DNA of 35,244 bases from a virus (Duplodnaviria; Heunggongvirae; Uroviricota; Caudoviricetes): the IMG/VR virus record IMGVR_UViG_2740892431_000022, one strand, 5' to 3'. Positions within the stretch are counted from its first letter, which is position 1. Every line of letters begins with the position of its first letter. Below the pieces are notes generated by a model that saw only the letters and a list, made by a program, of their open reading frames with translations, had not been told where the DNA came from and searched no databases. The position numbers and the translations under genes were made by a program. Positions 1,860 through 33,265 of the stretch are shown here, piece after piece.

Positions 1860-2258
1860 TTATCTGGATTTGTTAACGTCTTTCGTCTCCTCTGGCAGAT
1901 CTTCATCAAACAACCTGCCCTGCATCCGATCCAGTTCTTCTTTTCTGACCCGCTTAACCACGCTGTAGACCCACTGAAGCGAAACACCAAAATTGCGGGC
2001 CAGTTCGTGGTGGTTGCGTCCGTTAAACTCCCTGAAGATTTCCCGGTCGCGCTGACTGACCTTCCATACCATGCCCATCGGGAAATAAACGTTTTGCCCG
2101 CCCCAGACCTGCATCATTCGGTTCGCGACGGCCTGACCAATCTGGTCGGCAATTGCGGGCTCAATATCAATAATCTCGCGAACGGTCTCAGAGGTATGCT
2201 GTGCCAGTTCCACCAGGAGTTCCGGCCCTTTACTTCGAAACTGATTCAGGTCGCTCAT
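1860..2258 (-). CDS. mor: Mor/C-family transcriptional activator (middle operon regulator-like)
   Basis: Family signature ...GGQNVYFPMG...RDREIFREFNGRNHHELARNFGVSLQWVYSVVKRVR; GGGAG ribosome-binding site upstream; last gene of the early operon. Confidence 0.88.
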   Translation of the reverse strand: MSDLNQFRSKGPELLVELAQHTSETVREIIDIEPAIADQIGQAVANRMMQVWGGQNVYFPMGMVWKVSQRDREIFREFNGRNHHELARNFGVSLQWVYSVVKRVRKEELDRMQGRLFDEDLPEETKDVNKSR

Positions 2259-10182: not shown

Positions 10183-10211
10183 ATTATGAGAACTATTGTT
10201 CTCATTGTCAA
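10183..10211 (-). promoter_or_regulatory. Early promoter Pe (minus strand): -35 TTGACA, 17-bp spacer, -10 CATAAT
   Basis: Reverse complement of 10206-10211 is TTGACA and of 10183-10188 is CATAAT; about 45 nt upstream of the ner-like ATG. Confidence 0.6.
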
Positions 10212-10214
10212 TGA
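10186..10214. promoter_or_regulatory. Operator-like palindromes overlapping Pe
   Basis: ATGAGAAC-tatt-GTTCTCAT (10186-10205, 8-bp arms) fills the Pe spacer; TCATTG-t-CAATGA (10202-10214) overlaps the -35. Confidence 0.55.
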
Positions 10215-10221
10215 GGTTTGT

Positions 10222-10647
10222 GTGAATTTTGATTCTCTTTGCGCGTCGCGGTTCAAAGCTGAGCGTTCGCGGTTATCACTCAAGCAGGCTGAAGTAGCAG
10301 CCCTTTGTGGCGTTTCAAGAGAAATGTGGGGGAAATATGAACGAGGGGTTGCTGTTCCCGGAGGTGAGTTACTTGCAGCCTTTGCAAGAATTGGGGCCAA
10401 TGTACAGTTCATTCTTACCGGGGAGTCATCAGGTATAACTTTATCACGTGATGAAATGGAGTTACTGCAGCACTACCGGCAGGCACCATTACAGGTCAAA
10501 GGTTCAGTTTTGTCGGCCTTGACTACTGGCTCCTCCAGAGAACGGGCGGAACAGGTTATTCATGGAGATGTTCTGGGGAATGTTATCAAAGGTAACGTAA
10601 CCATAGGAACAGGTGGAATAATGAACAAAAATACCAAGAGAAGATGA
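10222..10647 (+). CDS. XRE-family HTH repressor-like protein
   Basis: HTH ...LSLKQAEVAALCGVSREMWGKYERG...; divergent from the ner-A-B operon; GTG at 10222 has GAGG 5 nt upstream; the ORF-track ATG at 10186 lies inside the operator palindrome (a leaderless start there is not excluded). Confidence 0.7.
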   Translation: MNFDSLCASRFKAERSRLSLKQAEVAALCGVSREMWGKYERGVAVPGGELLAAFARIGANVQFILTGESSGITLSRDEMELLQHYRQAPLQVKGSVLSALTTGSSRERAEQVIHGDVLGNVIKGNVTIGTGGIMNKNTKRR

Positions 10648-11630
10648 GTAAAGAGAAGCAAACAGTTAACGGGGATGTGGGTAACGTTGTCAGCGGTGAT
10701 GTTACCATTCATAACTATTCTGCTGACATACTTCCTTCGGCCCAGCAACCAATTTCGTTGCTGCAAAAACGCGATTTACACAGATTGATGGATGAATTGG
10801 TTGATCTGGGGGAAAGTAAGCGCGAGCTATGGATGACGATCCACACGAAACTTAATACCAAAACAGTTAATGAAATGACTGCGGCTGATTATCATGGTGC
10901 GGTTGAGATCCTTCAGAGATATGCACAACAGATCCAGAATATGAAGGACTGTAATCTTCTGGTCAGCAAAATAATGGCGCTTACTGACCCTGGGTATCGT
11001 CTTGACCGTGACAGATACTGTCTGAAGCATTTCGGTACAACCCATCTTAAAGGCCTAGACAAAGAGCAGTTGCAGGCTGTGTTTGGTTATTTTGATGATC
11101 TGCTGAATATTCGTGATGAGAGTAAAACTCTATCACCTCCATCGGAAAGCGGTGCAAAATCAGTCGCAACTGTACCAACCAGAAGCTGGAAGCCTCATGT
11201 AGTAGTGTTGGGGGGAGTGTTAGTTCTTGTAGCAATATTTTTCGTGGGAATGATTGTGTTCGCTGGTAAATGGGGAAATGCCAAAGCAGTAGCTTCTACT
11301 GAAACCAGCGTTTTTAACATTAAAACCAACGATAAAATAATAGAAGATTCCATCCCCGCACTGCGCAGCATGTTTCCAGGGTTAAATAAGTACTCAGATG
11401 ATTTCCATTCGGTTTCAAGCTACAAGCAAAAAACGGGCTGGCATACCCTTAAATTTACTGTATCAGCAAAGGCATCCGTCCCCGAAAATTATAGTGTTAA
11501 GGGCAAGGTTTGTTACATTAACATAAGCCCTGATGGTAGTTATGCTCGGGTTTTGACTGCTCCATGTCGTTCACTGCTACTTGATCAGCAAAGCACTCCT
11601 GACAGTAAATACCGTTTTATTCTTAAATAG
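10644..11630 (+). CDS. Single-pass membrane protein (328 aa), unknown function
   Basis: ATG overlaps the repressor stop (ATGA); roughly 180-aa N-terminal domain, one TM (HVVVLGGVLVLVAIFFVGMIVFAG), roughly 120-aa C-terminal domain with two Cys; sampled GC about 33-47 percent. Confidence 0.75.
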   Translation: MSKEKQTVNGDVGNVVSGDVTIHNYSADILPSAQQPISLLQKRDLHRLMDELVDLGESKRELWMTIHTKLNTKTVNEMTAADYHGAVEILQRYAQQIQNMKDCNLLVSKIMALTDPGYRLDRDRYCLKHFGTTHLKGLDKEQLQAVFGYFDDLLNIRDESKTLSPPSESGAKSVATVPTRSWKPHVVVLGGVLVLVAIFFVGMIVFAGKWGNAKAVASTETSVFNIKTNDKIIEDSIPALRSMFPGLNKYSDDFHSVSSYKQKTGWHTLKFTVSAKASVPENYSVKGKVCYINISPDGSYARVLTAPCRSLLLDQQSTPDSKYRFILK

Positions 11631-11720
11631 AAAATAACAGCTGAATTACCATGGGATCAGAAAAAAGACAAAGGCGGCATCATGCTGCGTTCTGAAATTT
11701 TAATGTAAAAGGTGATGAAC

Positions 11721-12302
11721 ATGGCAGGGATTCAGGTTATCGCAGGAAGTTTTCCTAAAGGGTGGGCAAGCATGGGGTTCGGTACCATCGTGTTTGCCAA
11801 AAAACCAAAACAAGGCTTTCCTGAAAATATTGTATTAAATCTGAAAGAAGAGCTTTTATCGATTGAACTTGCGGATAGTGAAGAGGAAAACCGTATAGGT
11901 AAGGCGGCAGGCGCAGGTTTGCTTGGTGGATTAATCTTTGGTGGTGCAGGGTTGGTCATTGGAGGTTTGCTTGGTGCGGCGGACAAGACGAAAAAAACTA
12001 TCACTTTTAAGGCAATGTTTACGGGAAATAGGTTACTTCTGGCTAAAACAGATTCAAAAACTTTTGTAAAACTTCAGTCAATTGCTGCTGATAATGCCCA
12101 TAACGCATCTGTAATCAACATGAAGCAAACTAATAGGGGCGATGTTTCTTCTCGTAAACAACTAACAGAAAATCCACAGCAGCAAGACTTACCTGCGCCC
12201 GCTACAACAGTAAAAATGACTGCCAAAGATAAGTTAGAATCGGCTCTTGGGCTGGGAATCATCGTTATAGCTGTTTGGGCAATAATACACTTCTTTTTTT
12301 AG
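11721..12302 (+). CDS. Glycine-zipper membrane protein (about 193 aa), unknown function
   Basis: AAGGTGA ribosome-binding site before the ATG at 11721 (ORF opens at 11712); AAGAGLLGGLIFGGAGLVIGGLLGAA segment plus C-terminal hydrophobic helix LGLGIIVIAVWAIIHFFF. Confidence 0.7.
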   Translation: MAGIQVIAGSFPKGWASMGFGTIVFAKKPKQGFPENIVLNLKEELLSIELADSEEENRIGKAAGAGLLGGLIFGGAGLVIGGLLGAADKTKKTITFKAMFTGNRLLLAKTDSKTFVKLQSIAADNAHNASVINMKQTNRGDVSSRKQLTENPQQQDLPAPATTVKMTAKDKLESALGLGIIVIAVWAIIHFFF

Positions 12303-12304
12303 TG

Positions 12305-12328
12305 CAGCCCTTCAGGGCTGTTTCTGTT
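12305..12328 (+). terminator. Putative rho-independent terminator after the cargo operon
   Basis: Stem CAGCCC/GGGCTG (12305-12310 with 12315-12320), loop TTCA, then TTTCTGTT. Confidence 0.5.
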
Positions 12329-12339
12329 CAGGAGGTATC

Positions 12340-12816
12340 TTAAGGATTATCCGGGGCGTTTTCCTGTTTGCCGTACTTCGGAGACGAACAACATTCTGTT
12401 GGCTGACCGGTGAGTTTACGTAACTCCTTCATGAGCAGCTCCTGATCGTAAACTGTCATCAGTGCCGCAATGGTGGCATGCAGTGCATCGGGCAGTATCC
12501 AGGGTTGCCGGCCCGTGGGGCATATAACATCCAGCAGCTCATTCGTCCGACAGATACGCTCCTCGCCGTATGACAACAGGCCCTGTCCCGTGTATTCCTC
12601 TAGCCTGATCACTGTGCCACCCCGTGGCTTCTGCCAGGTCGTCAGATCTTCGCCATTCATACGGCGCTCATTCTCCACGTCAGCAGCATCGACAATGACG
12701 CTGTTTCCGAGTTCCTGTTTCACCATCTCTTCTATCCGCGCCAGTACGTAACTTTTACCGCTGCCCACAGGACCGGACACAGTGACAGTGATGACCGGAT
12801 TCAGTGTGTGCGTCAT
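12340..12816 (-). CDS. Small P-loop NTPase or kinase-like protein (158 aa)
   Basis: Walker A GPVGSGKS at residues 15-22, then VIVDAAD; AGGAGA ribosome-binding site; opposite strand to both neighbours. Confidence 0.75.
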   Translation of the reverse strand: MTHTLNPVITVTVSGPVGSGKSYVLARIEEMVKQELGNSVIVDAADVENERRMNGEDLTTWQKPRGGTVIRLEEYTGQGLLSYGEERICRTNELLDVICPTGRQPWILPDALHATIAALMTVYDQELLMKELRKLTGQPTECCSSPKYGKQENAPDNP

Positions 12817-12877
12817 ATCGTATTCTCCTCTGTGAATAATTCATCGTTTATCCTGCACATCCCGTATCCCCGGCTCT

Positions 12878-12927
12878 CTTAACGCGCTTTAAAATCCTTC
12901 GCGCCCTGTATTTGTGATGCTGTCTCC
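12878..12927 (+). promoter_or_regulatory. Putative late promoter for the lysis operon
   Basis: CTTAA (12878-12882), TTAAAATC (12889-12896) and CTGTCTCC (12920-12927); the same arrangement recurs upstream of two other late operons. Confidence 0.4.
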
Positions 12928-12946
12928 ACCAAACGAGGAGACACAC

Positions 12947-13297
12947 ATGAAAAACCTGAAAAAATTCATTCCCCCTGTTAAAAAACCTCGCCTCAGCGGC
13001 TGGCTGCTGACCTCAGTGCTGTTGCTGGGCACCATCGCTCTGGTCTCACCACAGCAGCTGCCTGTTGTGATCTACAAGCTGGCACTCATCACGCTGGCAG
13101 CAGTGCTGGGTTACTGGCTTGACCGTTCGCTCTTCCCCAAAGCCCGTCCCGGTCAGTACCTGAAACATGACGACAGGCTGATGGCTGAAGGGCGTTTCCC
13201 GGTACAGACCGGCCTTCACCTGGTGTTTTCTGCTGCGTTAATCCGCCGTGCACTGATTGTTGCAGCGGTCTGCCTGGCTGTTGCGATGGGGCTTTAA
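12947..13297 (+). CDS. Putative holin (3 TM, 116 aa)
   Basis: GAGGAG ribosome-binding site; three hydrophobic helices; immediately upstream of the endolysin. Confidence 0.6.
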   Translation: MKNLKKFIPPVKKPRLSGWLLTSVLLLGTIALVSPQQLPVVIYKLALITLAAVLGYWLDRSLFPKARPGQYLKHDDRLMAEGRFPVQTGLHLVFSAALIRRALIVAAVCLAVAMGL

Positions 13298-13299
13298 TC

Positions 13300-14040
13300 A
13301 TGAACTGGCCGCAGATCACCTGGATTGTATGCATGTCCCTGAAACTGGCTTTCGAAGCCTTTCGGGTCTTCATCAGAACCGAACGCCTGTCAGTCCGCGC
13401 CGGGACCTTTCTGGTTCATATGGCATGGGTATTCTTTGTCGCAATGTTGCTCTGGTGTGGCGGCTTTTTCAGCCAGGCATGCGCAGCACAACCTCCGCAG
13501 GCTGCGCTGCAGTATCGCGATGATGTGATCCGTAATGCCCGGCTTGAATGGGGACTGTCTGCGCCGGTGGCCGATTTCGCCGCGCAACTGCATCAGGAAA
13601 GCGGCTGGCGACCTGATGCGATCTCGCCGGCTGGCGCTCAGGGACTGGCGCAGTTCATGCCTGCCACTGCCGACTGGATAAGCCAGTTGATACCGATGCT
13701 GAGCAGTCGTGAGCCGTTTAATCCGGCATGGGCTATCCGGGCGCTGGTCAGCTATGACCGCTGGCTGTGGCAGCGTGTCAGCGCCGCCAGTGACTGCGAG
13801 CGTATGGCCATGACACTGTCGGGCTATAACGGTGGTCTGGGCTGGGTACAACGGGACAGGCGGCTTGCATCACAGAAAGGTCTGGACAGCACCCGCTGGT
13901 TCGGACATGTCGCCACGGTGAATGCCGGACGCAATGCGGCCAGCTGGCGGGAGAACCGCCATTATCCGCAGCGCATCCTGCGCGAACTGGCACCGCGATA
14001 TCTCACATGGGGAGGCAGCAGTTGTGTGGCATCTGGTTAA
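13300..14040 (+). CDS. Endolysin, lytic transglycosylase with an N-terminal signal-anchor (SAR-like) segment
   Basis: SLT-type motif ...LHQESGWRPDAISPAGAQGLAQFMPATA...; hydrophobic N-terminal segment WVFFVAMLLWCGGFF. Confidence 0.8.
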   Translation: MNWPQITWIVCMSLKLAFEAFRVFIRTERLSVRAGTFLVHMAWVFFVAMLLWCGGFFSQACAAQPPQAALQYRDDVIRNARLEWGLSAPVADFAAQLHQESGWRPDAISPAGAQGLAQFMPATADWISQLIPMLSSREPFNPAWAIRALVSYDRWLWQRVSAASDCERMAMTLSGYNGGLGWVQRDRRLASQKGLDSTRWFGHVATVNAGRNAASWRENRHYPQRILRELAPRYLTWGGSSCVASG

Positions 14041-14674
14041 AAAGCTGCCGTGGCGCGGCATTCTGCTGGCCATTCTTATCAATGCCTTTCTGGTCGGCCT
14101 GTATGCCATGGGATACAGAAGTGGTCATGACTCTGCAAAGCGTGACGGTGATACCGCGCTCAGTCAGTTGCAGTCAGCATTTGACGCGTACAAAACGGAG
14201 CAGGCAACGCTTGAGAATGCTGCGCTGCGGGCCTGGGCCAGACGGTATCAGGAGCAGGTGGCCGCCGGGCAGCGGGCTGAAGCCGGTTATCTTGAGCAGA
14301 TTGCTCAACTGGAGAGCCGGAACAAACAACTACAGGGGCAAATTAACGATGTCACACAGCGCTGGATTGATGAAAAAGGTAAGAGTCATCCCATTGAGTG
14401 CGTGTTTACTCGCGGTTTCGTGCGCCAGTACAACGCCGCACTCGGGTATGACAACGCATCTGTCGACACCGGTCATTCAGACTCAGTTGCCGCCACTGGC
14501 ACCCGCTCTGGCACAGCGACCGGGCAACCTGAAACCACTGACACCCGGTTACGCGATTCGGGTGTCTCCCAGCGTGACGTTCTCGCCAACATCATCGACA
14601 ACGCAGGACAATGTCGTCGCTGGCGGAACCAGATAAACGCGTTACTGGATGAACGGGAAGGATTACAGAAATGA
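14024..14674 (+). CDS. Rz-like inner-membrane spanin
   Basis: GTG at 14024 with GGAGG 8 nt upstream; N-terminal TM (ILLAILINAFLVGLYAMGY) then coiled-coil region. Confidence 0.65.
   Translation: MWHLVKKLPWRGILLAILINAFLVGLYAMGYRSGHDSAKRDGDTALSQLQSAFDAYKTEQATLENAALRAWARRYQEQVAAGQRAEAGYLEQIAQLESRNKQLQGQINDVTQRWIDEKGKSHPIECVFTRGFVRQYNAALGYDNASVDTGHSDSVAATGTRSGTATGQPETTDTRLRDSGVSQRDVLANIIDNAGQCRRWRNQINALLDEREGLQK
14370..14636 (+). CDS. Rz1-like outer-membrane lipoprotein spanin, embedded in the +1 frame of Rz
   Basis: MKKVRVIPLSACLLAVSC with lipobox-like AVSC followed by a Pro-rich sequence; lies wholly inside 14024..14674. Confidence 0.65.
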   Translation: MKKVRVIPLSACLLAVSCASTTPHSGMTTHLSTPVIQTQLPPLAPALAQRPGNLKPLTPGYAIRVSPSVTFSPTSSTTQDNVVAGGTR

Positions 14675-14997
14675 CACTGCAGGTTGAATTCTGGACGGTG
14701 GTGAGTTTTTTGCTCACCTTCATGGGGTTTGTGGGAGGGCTCGCCAAATGGTTGTTCAGTAAAACAGAAGAACGCCAGGCGGCACGATTCGCCTCTCTTG
14801 AACAGGCCCTGCAACAGTCCGCATCCAACTGGGGCGAGCTGGAAAAAGAATTTATGCGATTTAAAGCGGATTTACCGCTGAATTATGTCCGTCGCGAGGA
14901 TTATATCCGTGGCCAGACAGTCATCGAGGCCAAACTGGACGCGCTTTATAACAAACTGGAAGTGGTACAGCAGTACCGCAATACCGGAGGTCAATAA
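14671..14997 (+). CDS. Small membrane protein with coiled coil (108 aa)
   Basis: ATGA overlap with the Rz stop; one TM (FWTVVSFLLTFMGFVGGLAKWLF). Confidence 0.6.
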   Translation: MTLQVEFWTVVSFLLTFMGFVGGLAKWLFSKTEERQAARFASLEQALQQSASNWGELEKEFMRFKADLPLNYVRREDYIRGQTVIEAKLDALYNKLEVVQQYRNTGGQ

Positions 14998-15308
14998 TGG
15001 TCGATATTACCCGGGTACGCCGCGAATCCCTGCGCTGGAGTCTGCTGGTTGCCCTGAACAAAACCCGCCCTTACACCGCCAGCGAAACGTTGCTGCTGGA
15101 CGTGTCCCGCGCCATCTACCCGGACACCACGCAACTGGAGCTGCGCCGGGAGCTTGATTATCTGGCAGATCGCAAAATGGTGGAGCTGGAGAAGAGACCG
15201 TCCGGTGACTGGTTTGCCGATCTGAGTCGCCTTGGTGTGGATATTGTGGAATACACCGTGGAATGCGGCCCGGGTATTGCCCGACCGGAAAAATACTGGA
15301 GTGAGTGA
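14997..15308 (+). CDS. Hypothetical protein (103 aa), possible winged helix
   Basis: Coupled ORF between the lysis genes and the terminase genes; no family recognised. Confidence 0.55.
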   Translation: MVDITRVRRESLRWSLLVALNKTRPYTASETLLLDVSRAIYPDTTQLELRRELDYLADRKMVELEKRPSGDWFADLSRLGVDIVEYTVECGPGIARPEKYWSE

Positions 15309-15310
15309 TT

Positions 15311-15853
15311 ATGGGACGTCGCAGCAGCATTGATTCTCTGCCGACGGATGTCCGCCGCTGGCTGGAGCGGGCGCTGACGGAGAATAATTTCACCGGCTAT
15401 GCTGAACTTGAAAGTTTGTTAAAAGAGAGGGGATATGTGATAACCCGCTCCTCCCTGCAGCGGTTCGGCTACAAAATGGAGCAGCAACTGGCCCGTGTTC
15501 GTGCGGCAACTGAAGCAGCCAGGCTGATGGCTCGTGAAGCGGGGGATGATGCGGATGACCGTTCTGCGGGACTGATGACGTTGATCCAGACGGAGATGAT
15601 CGACATCCTGATGCGTCTGCAACAAGTCAGTGACGAGAATGATCCGACTGATCGGGCGAAATTGCTGGCCACCGCTTCCCGCAATATTGCGACCCTGACC
15701 CGCGCCTCTGTCAATCTCAAGCGTTTTCAGAGTGAGGTCAAGGAAAAAGCAGAACTTGCAGCGAATGCGGCCGAGAAAATTGCCCGTAAGGGCGGATTGT
15801 CAAGCGACGCAGTACAGGCACTTCGTCGCGAGATTCTGGGGATTGCCACATGA
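15311..15853 (+). CDS. Mu gp27-like protein (DUF3486-type, putative small terminase subunit)
   Basis: MGRRSSIDSLPTDVRRWLERAL... N-terminus; immediately upstream of the large terminase. Confidence 0.7.
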   Translation: MGRRSSIDSLPTDVRRWLERALTENNFTGYAELESLLKERGYVITRSSLQRFGYKMEQQLARVRAATEAARLMAREAGDDADDRSAGLMTLIQTEMIDILMRLQQVSDENDPTDRAKLLATASRNIATLTRASVNLKRFQSEVKEKAELAANAAEKIARKGGLSSDAVQALRREILGIAT

Positions 15854-17373
15854 GCCAGTTCACGCCGGTAATACCAGACACTTCCGGTTATGATGCCCCT
15901 CCCGTTCTGTTGCCCTACCAGCAGCGCTGGGTGGCAGATGCCTCTCCGCTTAAGGTGATAGAAAAGAGCCGTCGTACCGGTATTACATGGGCTGAGGCAT
16001 CCGATAACGTACTGACCGCCGCCTCTTCTGCGCCAGCAGGCGGGATGAATGTGTATTACATCGCTTATAACCAGGACATGACCGTCGAATACATTCAGGC
16101 GTGTGCGATGTGGGCACGGGCATTCAACTATGCGGCCAGTGAAATTGAAGAAGGATTCTGGGAAGAGGACGACGACGACAAACACATCAAGACTTACACC
16201 ATCAAATTTCCTGACTCCGGCTTTCGTATTGTTGCGCTCTCCAGCCGCCCGTCTAACCTGCGTGGCCGTCAGGGTATTATTGTTATCGACGAAGCGGCGT
16301 TCCATGAGCAACTGGACGAACTGCTGAAAGCGGCGCTGGCGATGCTTATCTGGGGGGGAAAGGTACGCGTTATCTCCACCCATGACGGTGACGACAATCC
16401 GTTCAATACGCTTATCGGGGATATCCGTGCCGGACGTCAGGGAGGCAGCGTACATCGCATCACTTTCCGGGAAGCCGTATCTGAGGGGCTGTTCCGGCGC
16501 GTCTGTCTGCGCACCGGGAAGGAATGGTCAGAGGCATCCGAGCAGGCCTGGATGGCGTCGGTGTACAAATTCTACGCTGCCGGCGCATCCGAAGAGCTTG
16601 ACTGTATTCCGGTCAACGGTGGCGGCGCCTGGCTGTCCCGTGCCCTGATAGAGTCCCGCATGTCCGCTGATACGCCGGTATTGCGTCTGACCTGTCAGGA
16701 AGGTTATGAACTGCTGTCTGATGAGGTTCGCTTCCACGAGACACAGGACTGGCTTGATGAGCATCTGAAACCCTTGCTGGAGGCACTCCCCGCTGATGCC
16801 CGCTCTTTCCTGGGGCGCGACTTTGGCCGTAGCGGTGATTTGTCGGTGGACTATCCCCTGCTGCAGGAGAAGAACCTGGTACGACGCGTGCCATTCGTAC
16901 TGGAGCTGCGTAACGTGCCGTTCAGACAGCAGGAGCAAATCACCTGGTATCTGATGGATGGCCTGCCCGGTCTACTGGGTGCAGCGTTTGATGCCCGTGG
17001 TAATGGTGCCTATCTGGCTGAATACGCCATGCAGCGCTACGGCTCCAGCCGGGTTCAGCAGGTGATGCCAACTGAAGGCTGGTACCGGGAGCATATGCCT
17101 CCGGTCAAAGCTGCACTGGAAGACGGTAACCTGGTGGACTTACCAAAGGATGAAGACACACTGGATGACCTGCGGGCCGTTCAGGTGGTGAACGGTGTCC
17201 CCCGCGTGCCGGAGCAACGCTCAAAAGCAAAGGCTGACGGTGGTAAACGCCACGGGGATTCAGCCATCGCACTGGCGCTGGCGTATTTCGCCAGCCGTGA
17301 AATTAACAAAGGGCCGGTGAAGGCAAGCTCACGCCGTCGTCGTCAGGCGGCCCGTATGCTGGAGGGATTCTGA
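15850..17373 (+). CDS. Terminase large subunit (Mu gp28-like)
   Basis: 507 aa; ATPase-like N-terminal region and nuclease-like C-terminal region (...IVIDEAAFH...); conserved position. Confidence 0.88.
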   Translation: MSQFTPVIPDTSGYDAPPVLLPYQQRWVADASPLKVIEKSRRTGITWAEASDNVLTAASSAPAGGMNVYYIAYNQDMTVEYIQACAMWARAFNYAASEIEEGFWEEDDDDKHIKTYTIKFPDSGFRIVALSSRPSNLRGRQGIIVIDEAAFHEQLDELLKAALAMLIWGGKVRVISTHDGDDNPFNTLIGDIRAGRQGGSVHRITFREAVSEGLFRRVCLRTGKEWSEASEQAWMASVYKFYAAGASEELDCIPVNGGGAWLSRALIESRMSADTPVLRLTCQEGYELLSDEVRFHETQDWLDEHLKPLLEALPADARSFLGRDFGRSGDLSVDYPLLQEKNLVRRVPFVLELRNVPFRQQEQITWYLMDGLPGLLGAAFDARGNGAYLAEYAMQRYGSSRVQQVMPTEGWYREHMPPVKAALEDGNLVDLPKDEDTLDDLRAVQVVNGVPRVPEQRSKAKADGGKRHGDSAIALALAYFASREINKGPVKASSRRRRQAARMLEGF

Positions 17374-18866
17374 TGGCGAGGGGTATCTGGGTTTCACCCG
17401 ATGAATTTGTTGCTTTTTCTGAGCCTCAGAAATCACTGACCGCGCAGATTGCCTCCCGCAGCCGCGCGATCGACTTTTACGGACTGGGCATGTATCTGCC
17501 CAATCCTGATCCCATTCTCAAGGCTCAGGGACGGGATATCCGTATCTACCGCGAACTGCGCACCGACCCGCTGGTCGGGGGCTGTATCCGCAGACGTAAA
17601 GCAGCGCTCAAATCGCTGGAGCGTGGACTGGAGCGTGGTCACGCCTCTGCCCGGGTCTTCCGTTTCATCCGCGACATGCTCGACGATCTGGATCTGTCCC
17701 GCATCATCGGTGAAATGAGCGATGCCGTGCTCTACGGGTATCAGCCCTGTGAAATCATGTGGGGCCGTTCGGTCAGGGCGTGGGCGGTGACGGATATTGT
17801 CGGCAAACCGCCTGAGTGGTTTCAGTTTGATACGGACAACTGCCTGCGCTTCCGGGCGCGTGATGCGGGTGTGGAGGGTGAGCTGCTGTCACCGTCAAAA
17901 TTCGTGGTGCCGGCACAGGATGCCTCGTATGACAATCCTTACGGTTTCCCTGACCTGTCCATGTGCTTCTGGCCGGTCGCCTTCAAGAAAGGCGGGATGA
18001 AATTCTGGCTCCGCTTTGCCGAAAAGTTTGGCTCCCCGTGGGTGATCGGTAAGCACCCGAGGGGCGCAAATGATGCAGAGATTGAAAAACTGCTGGACTC
18101 CATGGAGCAGATGGTGGAGGACGCGGTGGCCGCCATCCCCGATGACAGCAGTATTGAGCTCAGGGCAGCGGATGGCAAGGCAGACAGCAGCGAGGTATTT
18201 CGCGAGCTGATCACACTGTCACGCAGTGAGATCTCCATTGCATTACTCGGTCAGAATCAGACCACGGAAGCGAACAGTAACAAGGCCTCTGCACAGGCCG
18301 GGCTGGAGGTAACGGCTGATATCCGCGATGCGGATGCGGACATCATTCAGGCGGCAGTGAATCAGGTCATCAGAACGGTGGTCACCCTGAACTTCGGCGA
18401 TGTGCCGTGTCCGGTCTGGGCCATGTGGGAACAGGAGGCCATTGATGACACCCGCGCCACCCGCGACGAAAAACTCACCCGCGCGGGACTGCGCCTGACC
18501 CCGCAGTACTTCATGCGGGAGTACCAGCTGCAGGAGGGGGATATTGACCTCTCTGATGCACCGGTTGCGGACGGGGCAGTGCCTGCGGAATTTGCCGAGG
18601 CGATAAGCGCCGATCATGATGCACAACAGCAGCTTGACGACGCGCTGGACATTCTGATGAACGGAGGTGTGTTAAATGGCACGCTGGAACCCGTCCTGGC
18701 ACCTCTGTTTAAGCGGGTCGAAAATGGGGTTAACCCGTCTGAGCTGCTGGGCGAACTGGCGGAGCTCTACCCTCAGATGAACACGGACGATCTGCAGGAA
18801 CGGTTGGCCCGCATTCTCTTTGTGGCAAATATCTGGGGGCGTCTGCATGAGCGTGACAACGGCTGA
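17373..18866 (+). CDS. Portal protein (Mu gp29-like, DUF935-type)
   Basis: 497 aa following the terminase; N-terminus MARGIWVSPDEF... typical of Mu-type portals. Confidence 0.88.
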   Translation: MARGIWVSPDEFVAFSEPQKSLTAQIASRSRAIDFYGLGMYLPNPDPILKAQGRDIRIYRELRTDPLVGGCIRRRKAALKSLERGLERGHASARVFRFIRDMLDDLDLSRIIGEMSDAVLYGYQPCEIMWGRSVRAWAVTDIVGKPPEWFQFDTDNCLRFRARDAGVEGELLSPSKFVVPAQDASYDNPYGFPDLSMCFWPVAFKKGGMKFWLRFAEKFGSPWVIGKHPRGANDAEIEKLLDSMEQMVEDAVAAIPDDSSIELRAADGKADSSEVFRELITLSRSEISIALLGQNQTTEANSNKASAQAGLEVTADIRDADADIIQAAVNQVIRTVVTLNFGDVPCPVWAMWEQEAIDDTRATRDEKLTRAGLRLTPQYFMREYQLQEGDIDLSDAPVADGAVPAEFAEAISADHDAQQQLDDALDILMNGGVLNGTLEPVLAPLFKRVENGVNPSELLGELAELYPQMNTDDLQERLARILFVANIWGRLHERDNG

Positions 18867-19668
18867 ACTGGCGTACTGCATGACGCTTCCCCCGAAGCGG
18901 GCAGTCAGTTACCTGAAGTCCAAAGGGTATCAGATTACCTGGGACTGGGAAGAAATGTGGCAGGAGGCCCATGCCCGCGCCTTTACCGTTGCTAAAGTGA
19001 CCCGCCTGGATATCCTGGAAGATATTCGCGGGGCACTGCAGCAGGCTGTCGATGAAGGAAAAACCGATCGCTGGTTCCGGCAGGAGCTGGAGCCGGTGCT
19101 GAAGCGTAAGGGATGGTGGGGACCACGTGACACGACTGACCCGGTAACGGGTAAGCCGGTCACCATTCAGCAGGGCAGTCCGTGGCGGCTCGATACCATC
19201 TTTCGCACCAATATGTCCGTACTCTACAGCGCCGGTCGTTGGGCGGAACAGATGGAAAACGTCGACGACAGGCCGTACTGGATGTATACCGGCATCAACG
19301 ACAGCCATACCCGCAGGAGCCATCTGGCGCTGCATGGTCTGGTGCTGCGCTGGGATGACCCGTTCTGGCAGGCATTTTACCCGCCGAACGGCTGGCGCTG
19401 CCGCTGTAGTGTGATTGCCCTGAGTGCGGCGGATGTACGTGCCCGTGGCCTGAAGGTTATCAGCTCCGGCTCTGCCATGGGCCAGGAACTGAAACTGGTC
19501 TCAGAGAAAACCGGCGAAATGCGGAACGTGGCCACCTTTAATACCGGCACCACGAAGGTGACCACCGACGTCGGCTGGTCTTATGCACCGGGGGCAGCAT
19601 ACCGTCCCGACCTGGCCCGCTATCAGGGTACGCTTCAGCCACTGGCACAACAGGAACTGAGAGGATAA
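18847..19668 (+). CDS. Head morphogenesis protein (Mu F-like)
   Basis: Start at the ATG at 18847 (MSVTTAEL...), overlapping the portal stop; Mu F/SPP1 gp7-like order and length. Confidence 0.8.
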   Translation: MSVTTAELAYCMTLPPKRAVSYLKSKGYQITWDWEEMWQEAHARAFTVAKVTRLDILEDIRGALQQAVDEGKTDRWFRQELEPVLKRKGWWGPRDTTDPVTGKPVTIQQGSPWRLDTIFRTNMSVLYSAGRWAEQMENVDDRPYWMYTGINDSHTRRSHLALHGLVLRWDDPFWQAFYPPNGWRCRCSVIALSAADVRARGLKVISSGSAMGQELKLVSEKTGEMRNVATFNTGTTKVTTDVGWSYAPGAAYRPDLARYQGTLQPLAQQELRG

Positions 19669-19670
19669 CA

Positions 19671-20129
19671 ATGGCTTCCGATAACCTGGTCAGTATCACC
19701 ATTAACGATAAATCCCTGCGCCGGAGCCTCCGTGCGCTGGATCTTGCTGCCACAGACCTGGAGCCCGCGATGCGCAAAATCGCCGGAACCCTGCTGGCGG
19801 AAACACAGTTTAACTTTCTTGATGAGGGGCGTCCGGGGTGGATCCCCTCGCTGGCAGCGGAAGAACGTGACGGGCAGACACTGCAGGATACCGGGCGTCT
19901 GATGGGGTCAGTATCAACCGACCATGACGACCGGCAGGCTGTTGTGGGGACCAACGTTGTTTACGGTGCCATTCACCAGTTCGGGGGTAAAACGGGGCGT
20001 AATGAGTCTGTTGAACTTCCGGCCCGCCCGTTCCTGCCGGTGACGGGGGATGGAGAACTACAGCCTGAAGTGGTAATCCCCATCCTCGATACCATTGTCC
20101 GCCATCTTGAATCAGCGGCCCGTCGCTGA
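19671..20129 (+). CDS. Virion morphogenesis protein (Mu G-like)
   Basis: 152 aa directly after the F-like gene. Confidence 0.75.
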   Translation: MASDNLVSITINDKSLRRSLRALDLAATDLEPAMRKIAGTLLAETQFNFLDEGRPGWIPSLAAEERDGQTLQDTGRLMGSVSTDHDDRQAVVGTNVVYGAIHQFGGKTGRNESVELPARPFLPVTGDGELQPEVVIPILDTIVRHLESAARR

Positions 20130-20175
20130 GTTTTCTCTCTTCAGGCGGGTGATTTATCATTGCCAGCGAATGAGG

Positions 20176-20216
20176 GGCTGTATTACCTTTATAAAGGCTT
20201 TACAGCCTCTGTTTTA
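20176..20216 (+). terminator. Putative terminator or structured element after the G-like gene
   Basis: GGCTGTA (20176-20182) pairs with TACAGCC (20201-20207), followed by TCTGTTTTAT; the loop contains the palindrome CCTTTATAAAGG. Confidence 0.4.
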
Positions 20217-20270
20217 TAACCGCCTCCGGTTCACCGCATTGCTTTCCCTGTCCTTCTCCCCTGATGTTTT

Positions 20271-20319
20271 CTAAAGCAGATTAAAATCGCCGGGCCTGCA
20301 TTTCTCACAAACTGTCTCC
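20271..20319 (+). promoter_or_regulatory. Putative late promoter for the head protease/scaffold operon
   Basis: CTAAA (20271-20275), TTAAAATC (20281-20288), CTGTCTCC (20312-20319), with the same 31-bp box spacing as at 12889/12920. Confidence 0.4.
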
Positions 20320-20343
20320 GACAACATAACGCGGGACAGCAAA

Positions 20344-21459
20344 ATGTCAGCCATTCACATTTTTAAAGCCGGTACTCATACCGATATGCACGGCAAAAAA
20401 CTGCCGTTCACGCCAGACGATCTTGCCGCCTGCGTGAAAGCCTATGACCCGTCCGTCCATGAAGCACCACTCGTGATTGGTCATCCCAGAACGGAAGACC
20501 CGGCGTGGGGCTGGGTGAAAGCCCTGTCGCTCAGCGGCGTCGATCTGATGGCAGAGCCTGCCCAGCTGGACCCGCAGTTTGCTGAGATGGTCACCGACGG
20601 ACGATTCAAAAAAGTGTCCGCCTCTTTCTACCTCCCGGATTCACCGTCCAATCCGAAGCCCGGCGTGCTCTACCTTCGCCATGTGGGCTTTCTCGGGGCA
20701 CAGCCACCTTCCGTCAAGGGGCTGAAACAGGTGTCCTTCAGTGAGCAGGAAGAAGGTGTGGTGGAGTTCGCCGACTGGCAGGCCATCACGAATGCCTCCC
20801 TGTGGGGAAAGCTGCGCGATTTTCTGATCGCCCGCTTCAGTCTGGACGAGGCAGAAAAAGTCCTGCCGGAATGGCAGCTCAACAGTCTGCGCGAAGAGGC
20901 GTACCGCGACACACTGTCGCAGGATGCAGCAGGTGCACAATTCAGTGAGACAGGCCCGGGGCCGTCTTCCGCAAGTAACGAGGAATCATCGATGACAAAA
21001 GAAGAGATTGAAGCCCTTCAGGAGGAGAACCGCCGCCTGAAGCAGCAGGCTGCTGATCGCGATGCGCGTGATGCACAGGTCAGACAGGAGCAACTGCATA
21101 AGGACAATGTGGCCTTTGCAGAAAAACTGGTCGCAGAGGGCCGTCTGGCTCCCCGCGCCTCCTCCGTGGTGGTTGCCCTGCTGGATGCCGTCGCCGGTGG
21201 CGACAAGCCGGTGGAGTTTGCTGAGGGGGAAAGCCGCACACCGCTGGCCACCGCCTTTCGTTCATTGCTCTCCGACGGGGAGCCGGTGATGAATTTCGCC
21301 GAACAGGCCACAAAAGAGCGTGTCGGCGACACGGTGAAGGTGGATGTGGCAGAGTTTGCGGAAGCCGATCCTGAGCGTCTGGCCCTGCATCAGAAAGCAG
21401 TGGCCCTGTCCAAAAAAGAAGGCATCAGCTATGAGGCTGCTGTCGCACGCTGCCTGTAA
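20344..21459 (+). CDS. Head maturation protease/scaffold (Mu I-like)
   Basis: 371 aa; N-terminal protease-like domain and C-terminal coiled-coil/acidic scaffold-like region; directly upstream of the major head gene. Confidence 0.82.
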   Translation: MSAIHIFKAGTHTDMHGKKLPFTPDDLAACVKAYDPSVHEAPLVIGHPRTEDPAWGWVKALSLSGVDLMAEPAQLDPQFAEMVTDGRFKKVSASFYLPDSPSNPKPGVLYLRHVGFLGAQPPSVKGLKQVSFSEQEEGVVEFADWQAITNASLWGKLRDFLIARFSLDEAEKVLPEWQLNSLREEAYRDTLSQDAAGAQFSETGPGPSSASNEESSMTKEEIEALQEENRRLKQQAADRDARDAQVRQEQLHKDNVAFAEKLVAEGRLAPRASSVVVALLDAVAGGDKPVEFAEGESRTPLATAFRSLLSDGEPVMNFAEQATKERVGDTVKVDVAEFAEADPERLALHQKAVALSKKEGISYEAAVARCL

Positions 21460-21473
21460 TTTAAGGAGAGAGC

Positions 21474-22427
21474 ATGTCTGATTACTTAAAAGGTAAACGT
21501 GTCGTTGATCCGGTACTGACCAGTATCGCCCGTGGCTATAAAAATGCCGCATTCATCGGCGAACGTATTTTCCCCGTCGTGCTGACGGACAAGGAAGGCG
21601 TGCGTGTACCGACCTTCGGGAAAACCGCCTTTGTGGAATATGACACCGAGCGTGCCGTCGGGGCGGACAGCAATGTTCTGGTCCGTGAAAAAACAGGCAC
21701 GCTGGACCTGGTGCTGGGTGAACACGATCTGGCTGCGCCGGTGGACTATCGCGAGCAGGCGGAGTCCATGTTTAACGAAGAGAGCAAGGCCATCCGTCGC
21801 GCCACGAATGGCGTGAACCTGCGCCGTGAACTTATCGCTGCCCGTCTGGCTCAGGATGAAAAGGTCTACCGTACCGGGCACGTCAAAAAACTGACAGCCA
21901 GTGATCGCTGGGCCGGTGGTAAGGGGGACCCCATCGGGGTGATTGAAGCCGGTATGGAAGCGGTCCGTACGGCCACGGGGCTGCGTCCTAACCTGATGAC
22001 CATGGGGGCCGGCGTGATGGCGCTGCTGAAGTTCCACCCGGCGATTCAGGCCGCCATCGGAGCCAACGAACGCAAGCGCATCACCACAGAAATCCTGCAG
22101 GACCTCTTTCAGATCGAAGAGATCGTCATCGGTGCCCCAGTCTCCCTGCCGTCCATGAAAGCGGCAATGGATAAGAACAGCGTGCCGGCGGATATCTGGG
22201 GAGACAATCTGATGCTGCACTATGTCGGCAAACCGCAGCCGGGGGCGGACAGCGCGGACGAGAACGAGCCGTCCTTCGGCTACACCCTGCGTCGTAAGGG
22301 GATGCCTGTTGCCGACAAATACGACGGAGCCGGTGGCAAGGTGAAGTACTGCCGTTATACCGATATCTACAAAGTCGCCGTGGTTGGTGGCGATGCCGGG
22401 TATCTCATTACCGGTATCAGTAAATAA
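21474..22427 (+). CDS. Major head subunit (Mu T-like)
   Basis: 317 aa; N-terminus MSDYLKGKRVVDPVLTSIARGYKNAAFIGERIFPVV typical of Mu-type major capsid proteins. Confidence 0.88.
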   Translation: MSDYLKGKRVVDPVLTSIARGYKNAAFIGERIFPVVLTDKEGVRVPTFGKTAFVEYDTERAVGADSNVLVREKTGTLDLVLGEHDLAAPVDYREQAESMFNEESKAIRRATNGVNLRRELIAARLAQDEKVYRTGHVKKLTASDRWAGGKGDPIGVIEAGMEAVRTATGLRPNLMTMGAGVMALLKFHPAIQAAIGANERKRITTEILQDLFQIEEIVIGAPVSLPSMKAAMDKNSVPADIWGDNLMLHYVGKPQPGADSADENEPSFGYTLRRKGMPVADKYDGAGGKVKYCRYTDIYKVAVVGGDAGYLITGISK

Positions 22428-22436
22428 GGAGGCGTT

Positions 22437-22775
22437 ATGGGAACCACTCAGCAGGTCATTCTGATCACAACCGTAACGGCAGGGGCAGCACTGGCACAGC
22501 AGCGTTTTGTCGGGGCAGATAATACCCCCTGTAAAGCCGGTGCCGCAGCGCTCGGGGTTGCCGAAGTGGATGCTGTTACCGGCGACAGCACGCCGGTGAG
22601 CGTTCTGGGCATTATTGCTGTCGAGGCCGGGGCCGCTGTCAGCCGTGGTGTGGCTGTTCAGTCAGATGCTCAGGCCAGAGCCGTGCCGCAGTCCGGCGAC
22701 GGTAAATCCTGTGGTATTGCACTTGATGAAGCCGGGGGTGAAGGCGACGTCATTCGTATCCTGCGCGGGGTGTGA
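22437..22775 (+). CDS. Hypothetical head-associated protein (Ala/Val/Gly-rich, 112 aa)
   Basis: ORF directly after the capsid gene. Confidence 0.5.
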   Translation: MGTTQQVILITTVTAGAALAQQRFVGADNTPCKAGAAALGVAEVDAVTGDSTPVSVLGIIAVEAGAAVSRGVAVQSDAQARAVPQSGDGKSCGIALDEAGGEGDVIRILRGV

Positions 22776-22776
22776 C

Positions 22777-23223
22777 ATGTACTGCACCCTGGAGGATTTG
22801 CTTGCGCAGGTGCCGGAGCGGACGCTTATCGAGCTCACCAGTGAAGAGATGGACTTCGACTCACCTGCAACAGTGAATACCCGTGTGGTGGACAGCTGTA
22901 TCCGCTATGCCGACGAGCTGATTGATGCCCATCTGCGCGGACGCTATATCCTGCCACTGGCAGAGATACCGACTGTTCTGCGGGACATTGCCATCACGCT
23001 GGTCCGTTACCGGCTCTACGCCCGCCGCCCGGAAGGTGACCTCCCGGATACGGTGAAGGATGACCACAAAGAAGCGCTGCGGCAACTCAGGGAGTTACGT
23101 GATAACAGGCTCACGCTGGGGCTGCCGTCCACTCAGAAAGATGTGCCTGAGCCTGGCGAGTTTCGTGTACGCAGTCGCCCGGCTACTTTCGGCGGTCGTG
23201 ACGGTTTACTGGAGAAATACTGA
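22777..23223 (+). CDS. Mu gp36-like protein (DUF1320-type)
   Basis: Start at the ATG at 22777 (MYCTLEDLLAQVPERTLIEL...), just after the upstream stop. Confidence 0.7.
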   Translation: MYCTLEDLLAQVPERTLIELTSEEMDFDSPATVNTRVVDSCIRYADELIDAHLRGRYILPLAEIPTVLRDIAITLVRYRLYARRPEGDLPDTVKDDHKEALRQLRELRDNRLTLGLPSTQKDVPEPGEFRVRSRPATFGGRDGLLEKY

Positions 23224-23687
23224 TGAACGTTCTGCCCGTCCTTGATGCGGTACTGGCCCGGTTACGCGAGAAGCTGCCGCAACTGCAGGTGGAGTACTTC
23301 CCGGAGAAACCGGCTGAATATCGCCTGAACCATCCGGTTGGCGCGTTGCTGTTGAGCTATGCCGGTTCGCGCTTTGACAGGCCGGATGATACCGGTGCAG
23401 TGATCCAGTCTCAGACTATCCAGCTCTGCGTCACGGTGGTCTTCCGCCAGCTCAACGGTAAAAAAGGGGCGATTAATGTCCTGGATGCTGTCCGCCGCAT
23501 TCTCGGTGGCCACACCCCGCCCGGCTGCCGCCGCCGTATCTGGCTGACCCGCGAGGTGTTTATCGGTGAAGTCAGGGGGCTGTGGCAGTACGCCCTCGAC
23601 TTCGCGACTGAAAGCGTCTTTATCGAAGACAGCGATTTACCGTCCGGCCCGCTGTTAACCGAAGTGAACTATGAGGAAAGCGAGTGA
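23223..23687 (+). CDS. Mu gp37-like protein (DUF1834-type)
   Basis: 154 aa; coupled to the previous gene. Confidence 0.7.
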   Translation: MNVLPVLDAVLARLREKLPQLQVEYFPEKPAEYRLNHPVGALLLSYAGSRFDRPDDTGAVIQSQTIQLCVTVVFRQLNGKKGAINVLDAVRRILGGHTPPGCRRRIWLTREVFIGEVRGLWQYALDFATESVFIEDSDLPSGPLLTEVNYEESE

Positions 23688-25876: not shown

Positions 25877-25878
25877 CG

Positions 25879-26160: not shown

Positions 26161-26167
26161 CATCACA

Positions 26168-26190
26168 GGGGCTCCGGCCCCTTCTTCTTA
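26168..26190 (+). terminator. Putative rho-independent terminator
   Basis: GGGGC-tccg-GCCCC (26168-26181) followed by TTCTTCTTA. Confidence 0.5.
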
Positions 26191-26236
26191 ATCTCCTTTA
26201 ATATCCGTCACGCGCTTCTCCCGACATACTGCCCTG
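26187..26236 (+). promoter_or_regulatory. Putative late promoter for the tail operon (diverged copy of the late motif)
   Basis: CTTAA (26187-26191), TTAATATC (26198-26205) and CTGCCCTG (26229-26236) at the same spacing as the other two sites. Confidence 0.35.
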
Positions 26237-26257
26237 AACTTACACAGGAGCACAATC

Positions 26258-32863: not shown

Positions 32864-32917
32864 GCTTTTTAAACGCCTTTAATATCAGCGTTCCCGCACG
32901 GGGGCAATACTGCCCCC

Positions 32918-33265
32918 ATGAAAACAACCTCAGTATTCTGGCAACCAGCCCTGCAGGCTCCCGGCGAAATTGTCCGGGGGCTGGATGATATCCGGCAGGC
33001 GATTCAAATTATCCTGCGGACTCCCCGCGGCAGCGACCCGCATCGCCCGGAGTTCGGCAGCAATCTGCATCTTTATATCGACTGGCCTGTAGACCGGGCC
33101 ATTCCGCATGTGGTGCGCGAATCCGTCGATGCCATCCGGCGCTGGGAGCCCCGCTGCCAGCTTATGTCAGTTAAACCCGCCGTCGACGGCGAACATCTTA
33201 CGCTCCGGGTGAGCTGGAAAGGCTCAGACGGACAGACCCGGACTCAGGTGCTGCTATGGCGCTGA
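32918..33265 (+). CDS. Baseplate protein W (gpW/gp25-like)
   Basis: 115 aa; conserved position. Confidence 0.82.
   Translation: MKTTSVFWQPALQAPGEIVRGLDDIRQAIQIILRTPRGSDPHRPEFGSNLHLYIDWPVDRAIPHVVRESVDAIRRWEPRCQLMSVKPAVDGEHLTLRVSWKGSDGQTRTQVLLWR

Follow-up and report, generated by a model that had tools for sequence, protein, structure and literature searches.

Introduction

The Mor and C activators of bacteriophage Mu act at 16-bp sites in which 5-bp inverted repeats flank a G/C-rich 6-bp spacer; these sites are centred at -43.5, where they replace the -35 element, and the bases directly downstream of them are needed as well (PMC4390567, PMC2582627). This layout is common to the Mor site in P_m and to the C sites in P_lys, P_I, P_P, and P_mom (PMC4390567, PMC2582627). 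Here we analyze a 35,244-nucleotide stretch of viral DNA (Caudoviricetes; IMG/VR record IMGVR_UViG_2740892431_000022), referred to as the window, and an intergenic element that is repeated within it. A sequence-only reading had described this element as a bipartite motif marking three activator-dependent late promoters of the Mu type, presumably driven by a single Mor/C-family protein.

By its sequence, we identify the window as a BcepMu-type (Mu-like) transposable prophage within an enterobacterial chromosome; positions 12300-14100 are 98% identical to Escherichia phage PhiKM (genus Bcepmuvirus). Near the end of its leftward early operon lies a Mor/C-family activator gene (1860..2258, minus strand), whose 132-aa product matches the Pfam family Mor (PF08765, E=3.6e-43) and has in common with Mu Mor and Mu C a GGxxxY(I/F)P linker and FNGRN-HTH (helix-turn-helix) motifs. 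A tblastn search of the window with Mu Mor, Mu C, BcepMu gp01, and Komp Mor did not find a second Mor/C gene. The element occurs at four sites, and these are very likely Mor-dependent late promoters that form, in this BcepMu-type prophage, an early-to-late cascade with a single activator; we infer Mor binding, the start sites, and Mor dependence from the sequence.

Four repeated sites at the heads of late operons

The three copies of the motif reported earlier are present exactly where they had been placed, at 12878-12927, 20271-20319, and 26187-26236. As originally delimited, site 1 consists of CTTAA (12878-82), TTAAAATC (12889-96), and CTGTCTCC (12920-27); site 2 of CTAAA, with one mismatch (20271-75), TTAAAATC (20281-88), and CTGTCTCC (20312-19); and site 3 of CTTAA (26187-91), TTAATATC (26198-205), and CTGCCCTG (26229-36). 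The count of three promoters, however, has to be raised to four, because a site at 32868-32917, between the baseplate V-like and gpW-like genes and directly before the gpW-like start at 32918, had been overlooked. The motif scan of the window that the sequence-only reading had suggested was run with the pattern TTAAWATC-N23-CTGYCY and returned these four matches, all on the plus strand and all intergenic, whereas 100 dinucleotide shuffles yielded none. Outside the four sites, the window has no copy of the octamer TTAAWATC.

Each site combines a putative activator box with a predicted -10 hexamer at a fixed distance. At site 1, the box CTTAA-CGCGCT-TTAAA (12878..12893, plus strand) is a 16-bp dyad with a conserved extension, ATC, that reaches 12896, and the hexamer GATGCT (12916..12921, plus strand), with A2 and T6 at the fixed distance, predicts a +1 at A12928. 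This site heads the holin-endolysin-spanin-terminase-portal operon, which begins with the holin ATG at 12947 and whose products include the holin (Pfam, 1.1e-41), an SLT endolysin, and a gp27-like TerS. Site 2 has the box TCTAA-AGCAGA-TTAAA (20270..20285, plus strand) and the hexamer CAAACT (20308..20313, plus strand), which is identical to that of Mu P_I and places the predicted +1 near 20320; it heads the protease/scaffold-major head-tail sheath/tube operon, with its first ATG at 20344. The box of site 3, CTTAA-TCTCCT-TTAAT (26187..26202, plus strand), and its hexamer CATACT (26225..26230, plus strand; predicted +1 at A26237) precede the tail chaperone-tape measure-baseplate hub operon (ATG 26258; Phage_TAC_7, Pfam 5.5e-21). 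At site 4, the box TTTAA-ACGCCT-TTAAT spans 32868..32883 on the plus strand. In agreement with the absence of an obvious -35 that had been remarked upon, no σ70-type promoter with a -35 was called at any site.

Conservation and predicted promoter anatomy

Four reference genomes were used for comparison, and their Mor proteins are ~90% (PhiKM), ~93% (Klebsiella phage KP12), ~55% (Burkholderia phage BcepMu), and ~45% (Pseudomonas phage Komp_PAO1_1) identical to that of the window. In addition, 67 prophage loci with 10-kb flanks were retrieved through the gp36/J-like adaptor protein from Enterobacterales, Burkholderiales, Pseudomonas, Neisseriales, and relatives. Four gene slots (holin, protease, tail chaperone, and gpW) were placed by tblastn, and start codons were assigned by an in-frame start search, the extrapolation from tblastn query offsets having been discarded because it yielded many non-ATG starts. 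Sites were aligned by fixed register, as a MAFFT alignment of three window sites misplaced site 2. A position weight matrix (PWM) was trained on 111 sites of distant clades, with the window and its close relatives excluded, and a slot was counted as carrying the site at a PWM score of at least 15. By this measure, the element is present in 211 of 222 homologous slots from 67 prophages in four bacterial orders, with 29/29 in the holin slot, 70/71 in the protease slot, 62/68 in the tail-chaperone slot, and 50/54 in the gpW slot.

Applied to the window, the PWM finds exactly four sites, with scores of 32.2 (site 2), 30.9 (site 1), 30.4 (site 3), and 28.7 (site 4), followed by a match of 17.4 (site 1 read in reverse), against a maximum of 14.5 in shuffled windows. 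Site 3, previously regarded as diverged, is therefore as good a match as the others. In BcepMu, KP12, and Komp_PAO1_1, the same matrix finds exactly four co-oriented sites each, at the holin/lysis, protease, tail-chaperone, and gpW slots.

The anatomy of the promoter was examined in an alignment of 200 non-identical upstream regions, anchored only on a loose TTAA-N6-TTAAWA score, of which 178 had at least 8/10 matches. Outside the anchor, position 40 is A in 173 of these 178 sequences, position 44 is T in 174, position 45 is G in 130, and position 51 is A in 110. From this pattern, we assign positions 39-44 to a σ70 -10 hexamer, with its key bases -11A and -7T at an invariant distance from the box, and position 51 to the expected +1. 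The box itself is a 16-bp dyad, nTTAA-N6-TTAAW, and the -10-like hexamer (nAnnCT) starts 22 nt after it with fixed spacing. Within the dyad, spacer positions 7-10 are 62-98% G/C, with 93% and 98% at the outer two of them (178 sites), and on its promoter-proximal side positions 16-20 are also conserved, as (A/T)A(G/T)CC. The dyad centre lies 30.5 bp upstream of the first base of the hexamer, which corresponds to -42.5 if the +1 is 7 nt after the hexamer and to -43.5 if it is 8 nt after.

Proposed assignment to Mor and comparison with phage Mu

We propose that Mor, as the last-expressed early protein, would bind the dyad nTTAA-N6(G/C-rich)-TTAAW together with the adjacent A(G/T)CC, with the dyad centre ~42.5 bp before the start site, in the place usually taken by the -35. 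Bound Mor would bring σ70 RNA polymerase to the weak -10 (nAnnCT), and transcription would start ~7 nt past the hexamer. By their position, the four promoters stand at the heads of the lysis/packaging, head, tail, and baseplate operons, an arrangement that points to a two-tier early-to-late cascade with one activator, as opposed to the Mor-then-C succession of Mu. A single Mor/C-family protein probably serves all four. What had been proposed from the sequence alone, Mu-type activator-dependent late promoters under one Mor/C protein, is well supported by the single Mor gene, the dyad, the fixed -10 distance, the lack of a -35, and the position at late-operon heads; its number of promoters and its second box do not stand.

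The resemblance to Mu extends from the Mor/C-family activator to the architecture of the site, an imperfect dyad of 16 bp in which A/T-rich half-sites of 5 bp flank a G/C-rich spacer of 6 bp over the -35 position, and which a recognizable -10 follows at a set distance. In both cases a genome has four late promoters, of which the first pair, in matching genome positions, stands before the lysis operon and the protease (I) operon. Likeness extends to the -10 regions, with TAGACTGCC and CAAACTGAC in Mu and GATGCTGTC, CAAACTGTC, CATACTGCC, and AATACTGCC in the window; CAAACTG and AnACTGCC are features in common. The differences lie in the box, which is TTAA-N6-TTAA here and TTAT-N6-ATAA-like for Mu C (for example, ATTAT-GCCCCA-ATAAC); in the distance from the dyad centre to the hexamer, 30.5 bp here and 31.5 bp in Mu P_lys and P_mom; and in the third and fourth promoters, found here at the tail-chaperone and gpW genes and in Mu inside N and at com-mom. 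Moreover, the gpW gene is predicted to be leaderless here, and arms that pair with the initiation region, described below, occur at essentially every promoter here and are absent at Mu P_lys and P_mom. The Mor site in Mu P_m could not be placed unambiguously by eye from the sequence.

Several observations count against the assignment to Mor. When the BcepMu-type PWM was run on phage Mu, it returned only an irrelevant match of 13.2, and the box is unlike every Mu Mor/C site. The dyad would be centred at -42.5, not -43.5, with a start 7 nt after the hexamer, and the prophage encodes other DNA-binding proteins (IclR-like, HU-like, and CII-like) that are candidate binders. The differing box would be compatible with a Mor specificity that departs from that of Mu within the same architecture, and two more distant phages bear on this point. 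The PWM gave no matches on the Mor-bearing siphoviruses JBD25 (Pseudomonas) and phiSHP3 (Stenotrophomonas), whose Mor proteins are only ~36-39% identical. Each of them has a repeated box of its own at equivalent late-operon heads, TTTTCGCyCCTTCCAAAAGAC at ~13340, 21760, and 27270 in JBD25 and GTGCAAATGACCTG at ~11190 and 19250 in phiSHP3. The box thus changes with the Mor clade while the architecture stays constant, which lends indirect support to Mor as the binder and suggests clade-specific Mor recognition codes.

The presence of other DNA-binding proteins raises the possibility that the box is bound by another phage regulator, such as an IclR-like, CII-like, or HU-like early protein or a late repressor. 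Several such proteins are indeed encoded in the early region; yet a 5+6+5 dyad with a G/C-rich spacer over the -35 position is the defining Mor/C layout, Mor is the sole family with a documented late-activator role in Mu-like phages, and a Mor gene accompanies the box in every complete genome examined. We consider binding by a regulator other than Mor improbable. The base composition of the block permits a different explanation, in which TTAA...TTAAAA would be a UP-element-like or bent-DNA segment of constitutive or host-factor-dependent σ70 promoters, or an IHF/Fis-type site, and would act independently of Mor. The block is A/T-rich and extends from about -50 to -32, overlapping the place of the proximal UP subsite (PMC4390567), and its binding by Mor is itself inferred. 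In contrast to degenerate A-tract UP elements, however, it tolerates no indels relative to the -10, and its two TTAA tetrads, separated by a G/C-rich spacer of exactly 6 bp, make up a strict dyad. The block is confined to the four late-operon heads, and it switches wholesale with the Mor clade even though hosts overlap (JBD25 and Komp both infect P. aeruginosa). The -10 hexamers are also weak and lack TG extensions, which argues that an activator is needed. A Mor-independent element is, in our estimation, highly improbable, and Mor-dependent late promoters remain the reading that we carry forward.

Complementarity between the promoters and the translation initiation regions

The second part of the motif, CTGYCYCC, had been taken for half of the recognition sequence. 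It corresponds instead to the end of the -10 hexamer, whose final two bases it covers, together with the discriminator, and it is not a family-wide feature: outside the enterobacterial clade, only CT (hexamer positions 5-6) and the next G are kept. The remainder is clade-specific and covaries with the downstream Shine-Dalgarno (SD) region, and in every clade the segment after the hexamer is complementary to the region directly before the start codon of the first gene. The 5' arms of this complementarity begin at hexamer positions 3-6 and end near +3. An arm that begins inside the -10 hexamer would be absent from the transcript of that promoter, so that the covariation with the SD region points to a hairpin that can form only in read-through RNA.

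In the window, all on the plus strand, the site 1 hairpin (12921..12943) would pair TGTCTCC (12921-27, before the predicted +1) with GGAGACA (12937-43, the SD), the site 2 hairpin (20312..20339) CTGTC(T)CC (20312-19) with GGGACAG (20333-39, SD region), and the site 3 hairpin (26230..26252) TGCCCTG (26230-36) with CAGG(A)GCA (26245-52, the SD). Other clades have other arms, such as GGCTGTGCGC/GCGCACAGCC at the Pseudomonas protease gene and CCTTCGCGT/ACGCGAAGG and AATCCTCC/GGAGGATT in the betaproteobacterial tail slot. The read-through RNAs of sites 1-4 fold at -13.3, -10.7, -12.1, and -15.8 kcal/mol (z -4.6, -2.1, -3.6, and -3.8), whereas the RNAs that begin at the predicted +1 of sites 1-3 reach -0.5, -5.9, and -1.4 kcal/mol, two of the three being unstructured.

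Because RNAalifold on MAFFT alignments mis-aligned the 3' arms between clades, explicit pair counts and a duplex permutation test were used in its place. In this alignment-free test, the 18 nt starting inside the hexamer were paired with initiation regions for 110 unique sites. The mean duplex energy was -13.3 kcal/mol with the site's own initiation region, -7.4 with regions of other clades, and -6.8 for shuffled arms; the own partner ranked within the best 5% for 55 of the 110 sites and within the best 20% for 93. For the holin slot of enteric relatives, the named helix reaches 79% pairing, compared with 42-59% in slid registers, and in the slot of site 2, pair 7:30 of the protease-slot alignment A3 occurs as CG in 12 sequences and as GC in 11.

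These results are compatible with a mechanism in which the segment from the end of the hexamer to ~+3, complementary to the translation-initiation region of the first gene, would hide the SD and AUG in read-through RNA, whereas transcripts that begin at the promoter would have no 5' arm and would be translatable; the covariation is observed, and the function is predicted from it. The chances appear evenly balanced that translation of the first gene of each operon is restricted in this way to Mor-initiated transcripts, by the hairpin or, at gpW and in some clades at the protease gene, by a leaderless start. Read-through RNA left untranslated would presumably be exposed to Rho-dependent termination. 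A prophage that inserts at random is exposed to read-through from the host, and the rightward genes at 10186-12302 are also aimed at the holin gene.

Some of the data speak against such a role. The RNA initiated at site 2 itself keeps a weak hairpin (-5.9 kcal/mol, z -2.0), in which the SD is open and the AUG is touched. In the enteric holin slot, taken by itself, the covariation is modest, at 2 of 10 pairs, and RNAalifold recovered the helices only partly, with 5 pairs in the protease slot and none in the holin slot. The inverted repeat at gpW (class L, described below) is well formed, with at least 5/6 pairs, in only 20 of 47 sequences. Finally, terminator-like hairpins already sit shortly upstream of sites 2 and 3; the one before site 3 is an intrinsic-terminator-like hairpin, AGGGGCTCCGGCCCCT (26167..26182, plus strand), followed by a T-run that merges into the site 3 box; it heads the list of terminator-like hairpins for 12700-32690, and the same arrangement is found in relatives.

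The complementarity could, then, be a by-product of a C-rich discriminator and a G-rich SD, an RNA processing or stability element, or a DNA cruciform that affects promoter melting. CTCC-like discriminators pair with GGAG by default, the terminators ahead of sites 2 and 3 are in place already, the 3' arm in the Pseudomonas protease slot is no SD, and the gpW-type hairpin leaves the AUG unpaired. Yet every foreign partner in the duplex test has an SD too, and the own partner pairs ~6 kcal/mol better. The arms are also clade-specific, 7-12 bp long, and the start of their 5' strand falls consistently within the -10, exactly as in T4 e, soc, 49, and I-TevI (PMC3014915). We regard these alternatives to a translational device as somewhat doubtful, though a serious possibility. 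Two further readings of the inverted repeats around the hexamer were rejected: a repressor operator, as the arms differ between slots of one genome while complementarity is kept, and intrinsic terminators, as no U-tract follows the repeats.

In T4, the late promoters of e (lysozyme), soc, 49, and I-TevI lie in the DNA that encodes the 5' strand of an inhibitory structure (PMC3014915). Longer transcripts initiated upstream can fold the SD and/or the AUG, and the late transcripts, without the 5' strand, are translated; as in the window, where the first case is the holin, a lysis gene is among them. T4 uses gp55 late promoters (TATAAATA), whereas those described here would depend on σ70 and an activator; here, furthermore, the arrangement is found at all late operon heads and is conserved with covariation over four bacterial orders, its function being predicted. 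A similar principle, termed fold-back inhibition, reportedly shields the transposase of IS10/Tn10 from external read-through transcripts, as Davis, Simons and Kleckner are said to have described in 1985. There, too, a transposable element can land in host operons, and a segment before its own start pairs with the ribosome-binding site and blocks the translation of external RNA; IS10, however, is a single-gene insertion sequence with a constitutive promoter, in contrast to the activator-dependent late operons of a phage. In Mu itself, at P_I (Mu 18026-18049), the +1 region is perfectly complementary over 7 bp (CTGCTCA/TGAGCAG) to the bases adjoining the SD of gene I, with a duplex energy of -16.3 against -4.9+/-2.0 for shuffled sequences, and nothing comparable is found at P_lys and P_mom.

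A predicted leaderless gpW gene

The core of site 4 (32900..32920, plus strand) has a different layout, with a GGGGGC / GCCCCC inverted repeat around the predicted -10, AATACT (32906-11), and the ATG of the gpW-like gene (Pfam GPW_gp25) at 32918. The A of this ATG is the seventh base after the hexamer and coincides with the predicted +1, and no SD is present; a start codon in this position implies a leaderless mRNA. ATG 32918 is the first possible start after the in-frame stop in the window, and independent annotators chose the same ATG in BcepMu, KP12, PhiKM, and Komp. In 47 of 50 gpW loci, the hexamer is followed at 6-7 nt by the first in-frame start codon, with no SD. Pairing between the flanking repeats is significant, though it does not extend to all sequences: it is 0.649, as compared with at most 0.557 in shifted registers and 0.478+/-0.028 for permuted partners. 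With the start codon at the predicted +1, only RNA initiated at the promoter would be a translatable leaderless mRNA. The protease gene follows the same layout in JBD25, in phiSHP3, and in Betaproteobacteria, where GCCGCC-gatcat-GGCGGC-ATG is one example.

Leaderless mRNAs are known from λ cI, transcribed from P_RM, and from tetR of Tn1721. The predicted gpW mRNA resembles these in having its start codon at the 5' end of the transcript and no SD, and differs from them in that the gene is a late structural one (the baseplate wedge gene gpW and, in Betaproteobacteria, the protease gene) and in that leaderlessness is predicted from promoter geometry alone.

A related observation concerns gene annotation. 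The annotated start of BcepMu gp32, ATG 18850, falls inside the predicted -10, GATGAT, and the same is seen in the protease slot of other betaproteobacterial loci. In gp32, a leaderless start and the conserved N-terminus MN(A/T)xKPLHIF both agree with an in-frame ATG (GGGCGCC-ATG-AAC) located 7 nt past the hexamer. Some deposited protease starts, that of BcepMu gp32 among them, are upstream of the predicted start site and probably wrong.

A probable divergent promoter at site 1

The box of site 1 is nearly palindromic, and its reversed PWM score of 17.4 exceeds the shuffled maximum; such a box would also fire leftward, and it probably drives a fifth promoter in that direction. At the mirrored distance from the box lies a candidate divergent -10 hexamer, CAGGAT (12850..12855, minus strand), with a predicted +1 near 12843, for the gene that runs from 12816 to 12340. 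A mirrored A2/T6 hexamer is found in the holin slot in 11 of 22 sequences when the position is exact and in 10 of 12 when +/-1 nt is allowed, and in enterobacterial relatives it is conserved at this slot only. In the other slots, the corresponding counts are 0/54-56 for the tail chaperone, 0/46 exact and 3/44 with +/-1 nt for gpW, and 5/63 exact and 12/63 with +/-1 nt for the protease.

The leftward gene (12340..12816, minus strand) is preceded by the SD GAGGAG and encodes a 158-aa protein (phrog_3787) with a Walker-A-like, P-loop-like motif, GPVGSGKS; it is truncated relative to a 242-aa PhiKM homologue. In PhiKM and KP12, the leftward unit runs on to a Dam-like DNA adenine methylase, which echoes the C-dependent mom operon of Mu.

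Novelty and significance

A description of BcepMu-type late promoters was not found in the searchable literature, although an earlier account in subscription journals is possible. What is new is the specificity of the box, within a well-known kind of promoter; the promoter-embedded hairpins, the leaderless gpW gene, and the shared divergent box appear to be variations on known themes that are unreported for Mu-like phages. Our analysis provides a regulatory map for widespread but experimentally neglected Mu-like prophages of E. coli, Klebsiella, Photorhabdus, Pectobacterium, Burkholderia, and Pseudomonas, and it proposes an exact recognition sequence for Mor/C activators of a second class of specificity. 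Cryo-electron microscopy structures of Mor/C with RNA polymerase are newly available (bioRxiv 10.1101/2025.05.02.651988) and would allow a comparison of how one fold reads TTAA-N6-TTAA and the Mu boxes.

The map predicts four or possibly five start sites to the exact base, a leaderless mRNA conserved for a structural gene, and a promoter-embedded device that would limit translation to activator-initiated transcripts, so far known mainly from T4 and insertion sequences. If this last prediction is true, it would constitute a genome-wide safety device for a randomly inserting phage, present in at least four bacterial orders, supported by covariation, and partly common to Mu P_I. For genome annotation, the gain would be the correction of protease starts such as that of gp32.

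Gene layout of the prophage

The early genes run leftward from ~10.4 kb to 1.1 kb and encode a Ner-like protein, transposase A and B homologues, gam, gemA, and, near the end, the Mor-family protein. The late genes run rightward from 12947 and encode the holin, SLT endolysin, spanin/lipoprotein, TerS, TerL, portal, F-like, and G-like proteins, followed by the protease/scaffold, major head, sheath, tube, tail chaperone, tape measure, baseplate, and fibre proteins. Bases 1-792 (plus strand) belong to a host gene for a CHASE7 periplasmic sensor, which leaves the window at its left edge and thereby places the left prophage end between about 800 and 1100. The Mor gene is directed outward, toward this left prophage/host junction. 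No Rfam families were detected in the whole window.

Three rightward genes (10186-12302, plus strand) lie between the early operon and the lysis promoter, pointing toward the holin gene; their products are an HTH_31/XRE repressor-like protein of 153 aa, a 328-aa protein (phrog_10002), and a 196-aa protein (phrog_12025). At the equivalent position, PhiKM carries another module (Dam methylase, all leftward), which suggests a swapped immunity or accessory region. After the tail-chaperone start, the open reading frames 26258-26593 and 26418-26675 overlap and resemble the usual G/GT-type programmed frameshift pair that precedes the tape-measure gene.

Between the G-like gene and site 2, the window contains CTTTATAAAGGCTTTAC (20187-20203), which overlaps a weak terminator-like hairpin at 20195-20208. 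The motif TTTATAAA has a single occurrence in the whole window, and motifs of this type are present in 52 of 63 unique relatives, including BcepMu, Komp, and JBD25, mostly 61-94 nt upstream of the protease-slot box. They occupy the G-I intergenic slot in which Mu has its strong gyrase site (annotated at Mu 17879), and the CTTTATAAAGGCTTTAC region could be a gyrase, IHF, or nucleoid-organizing site.

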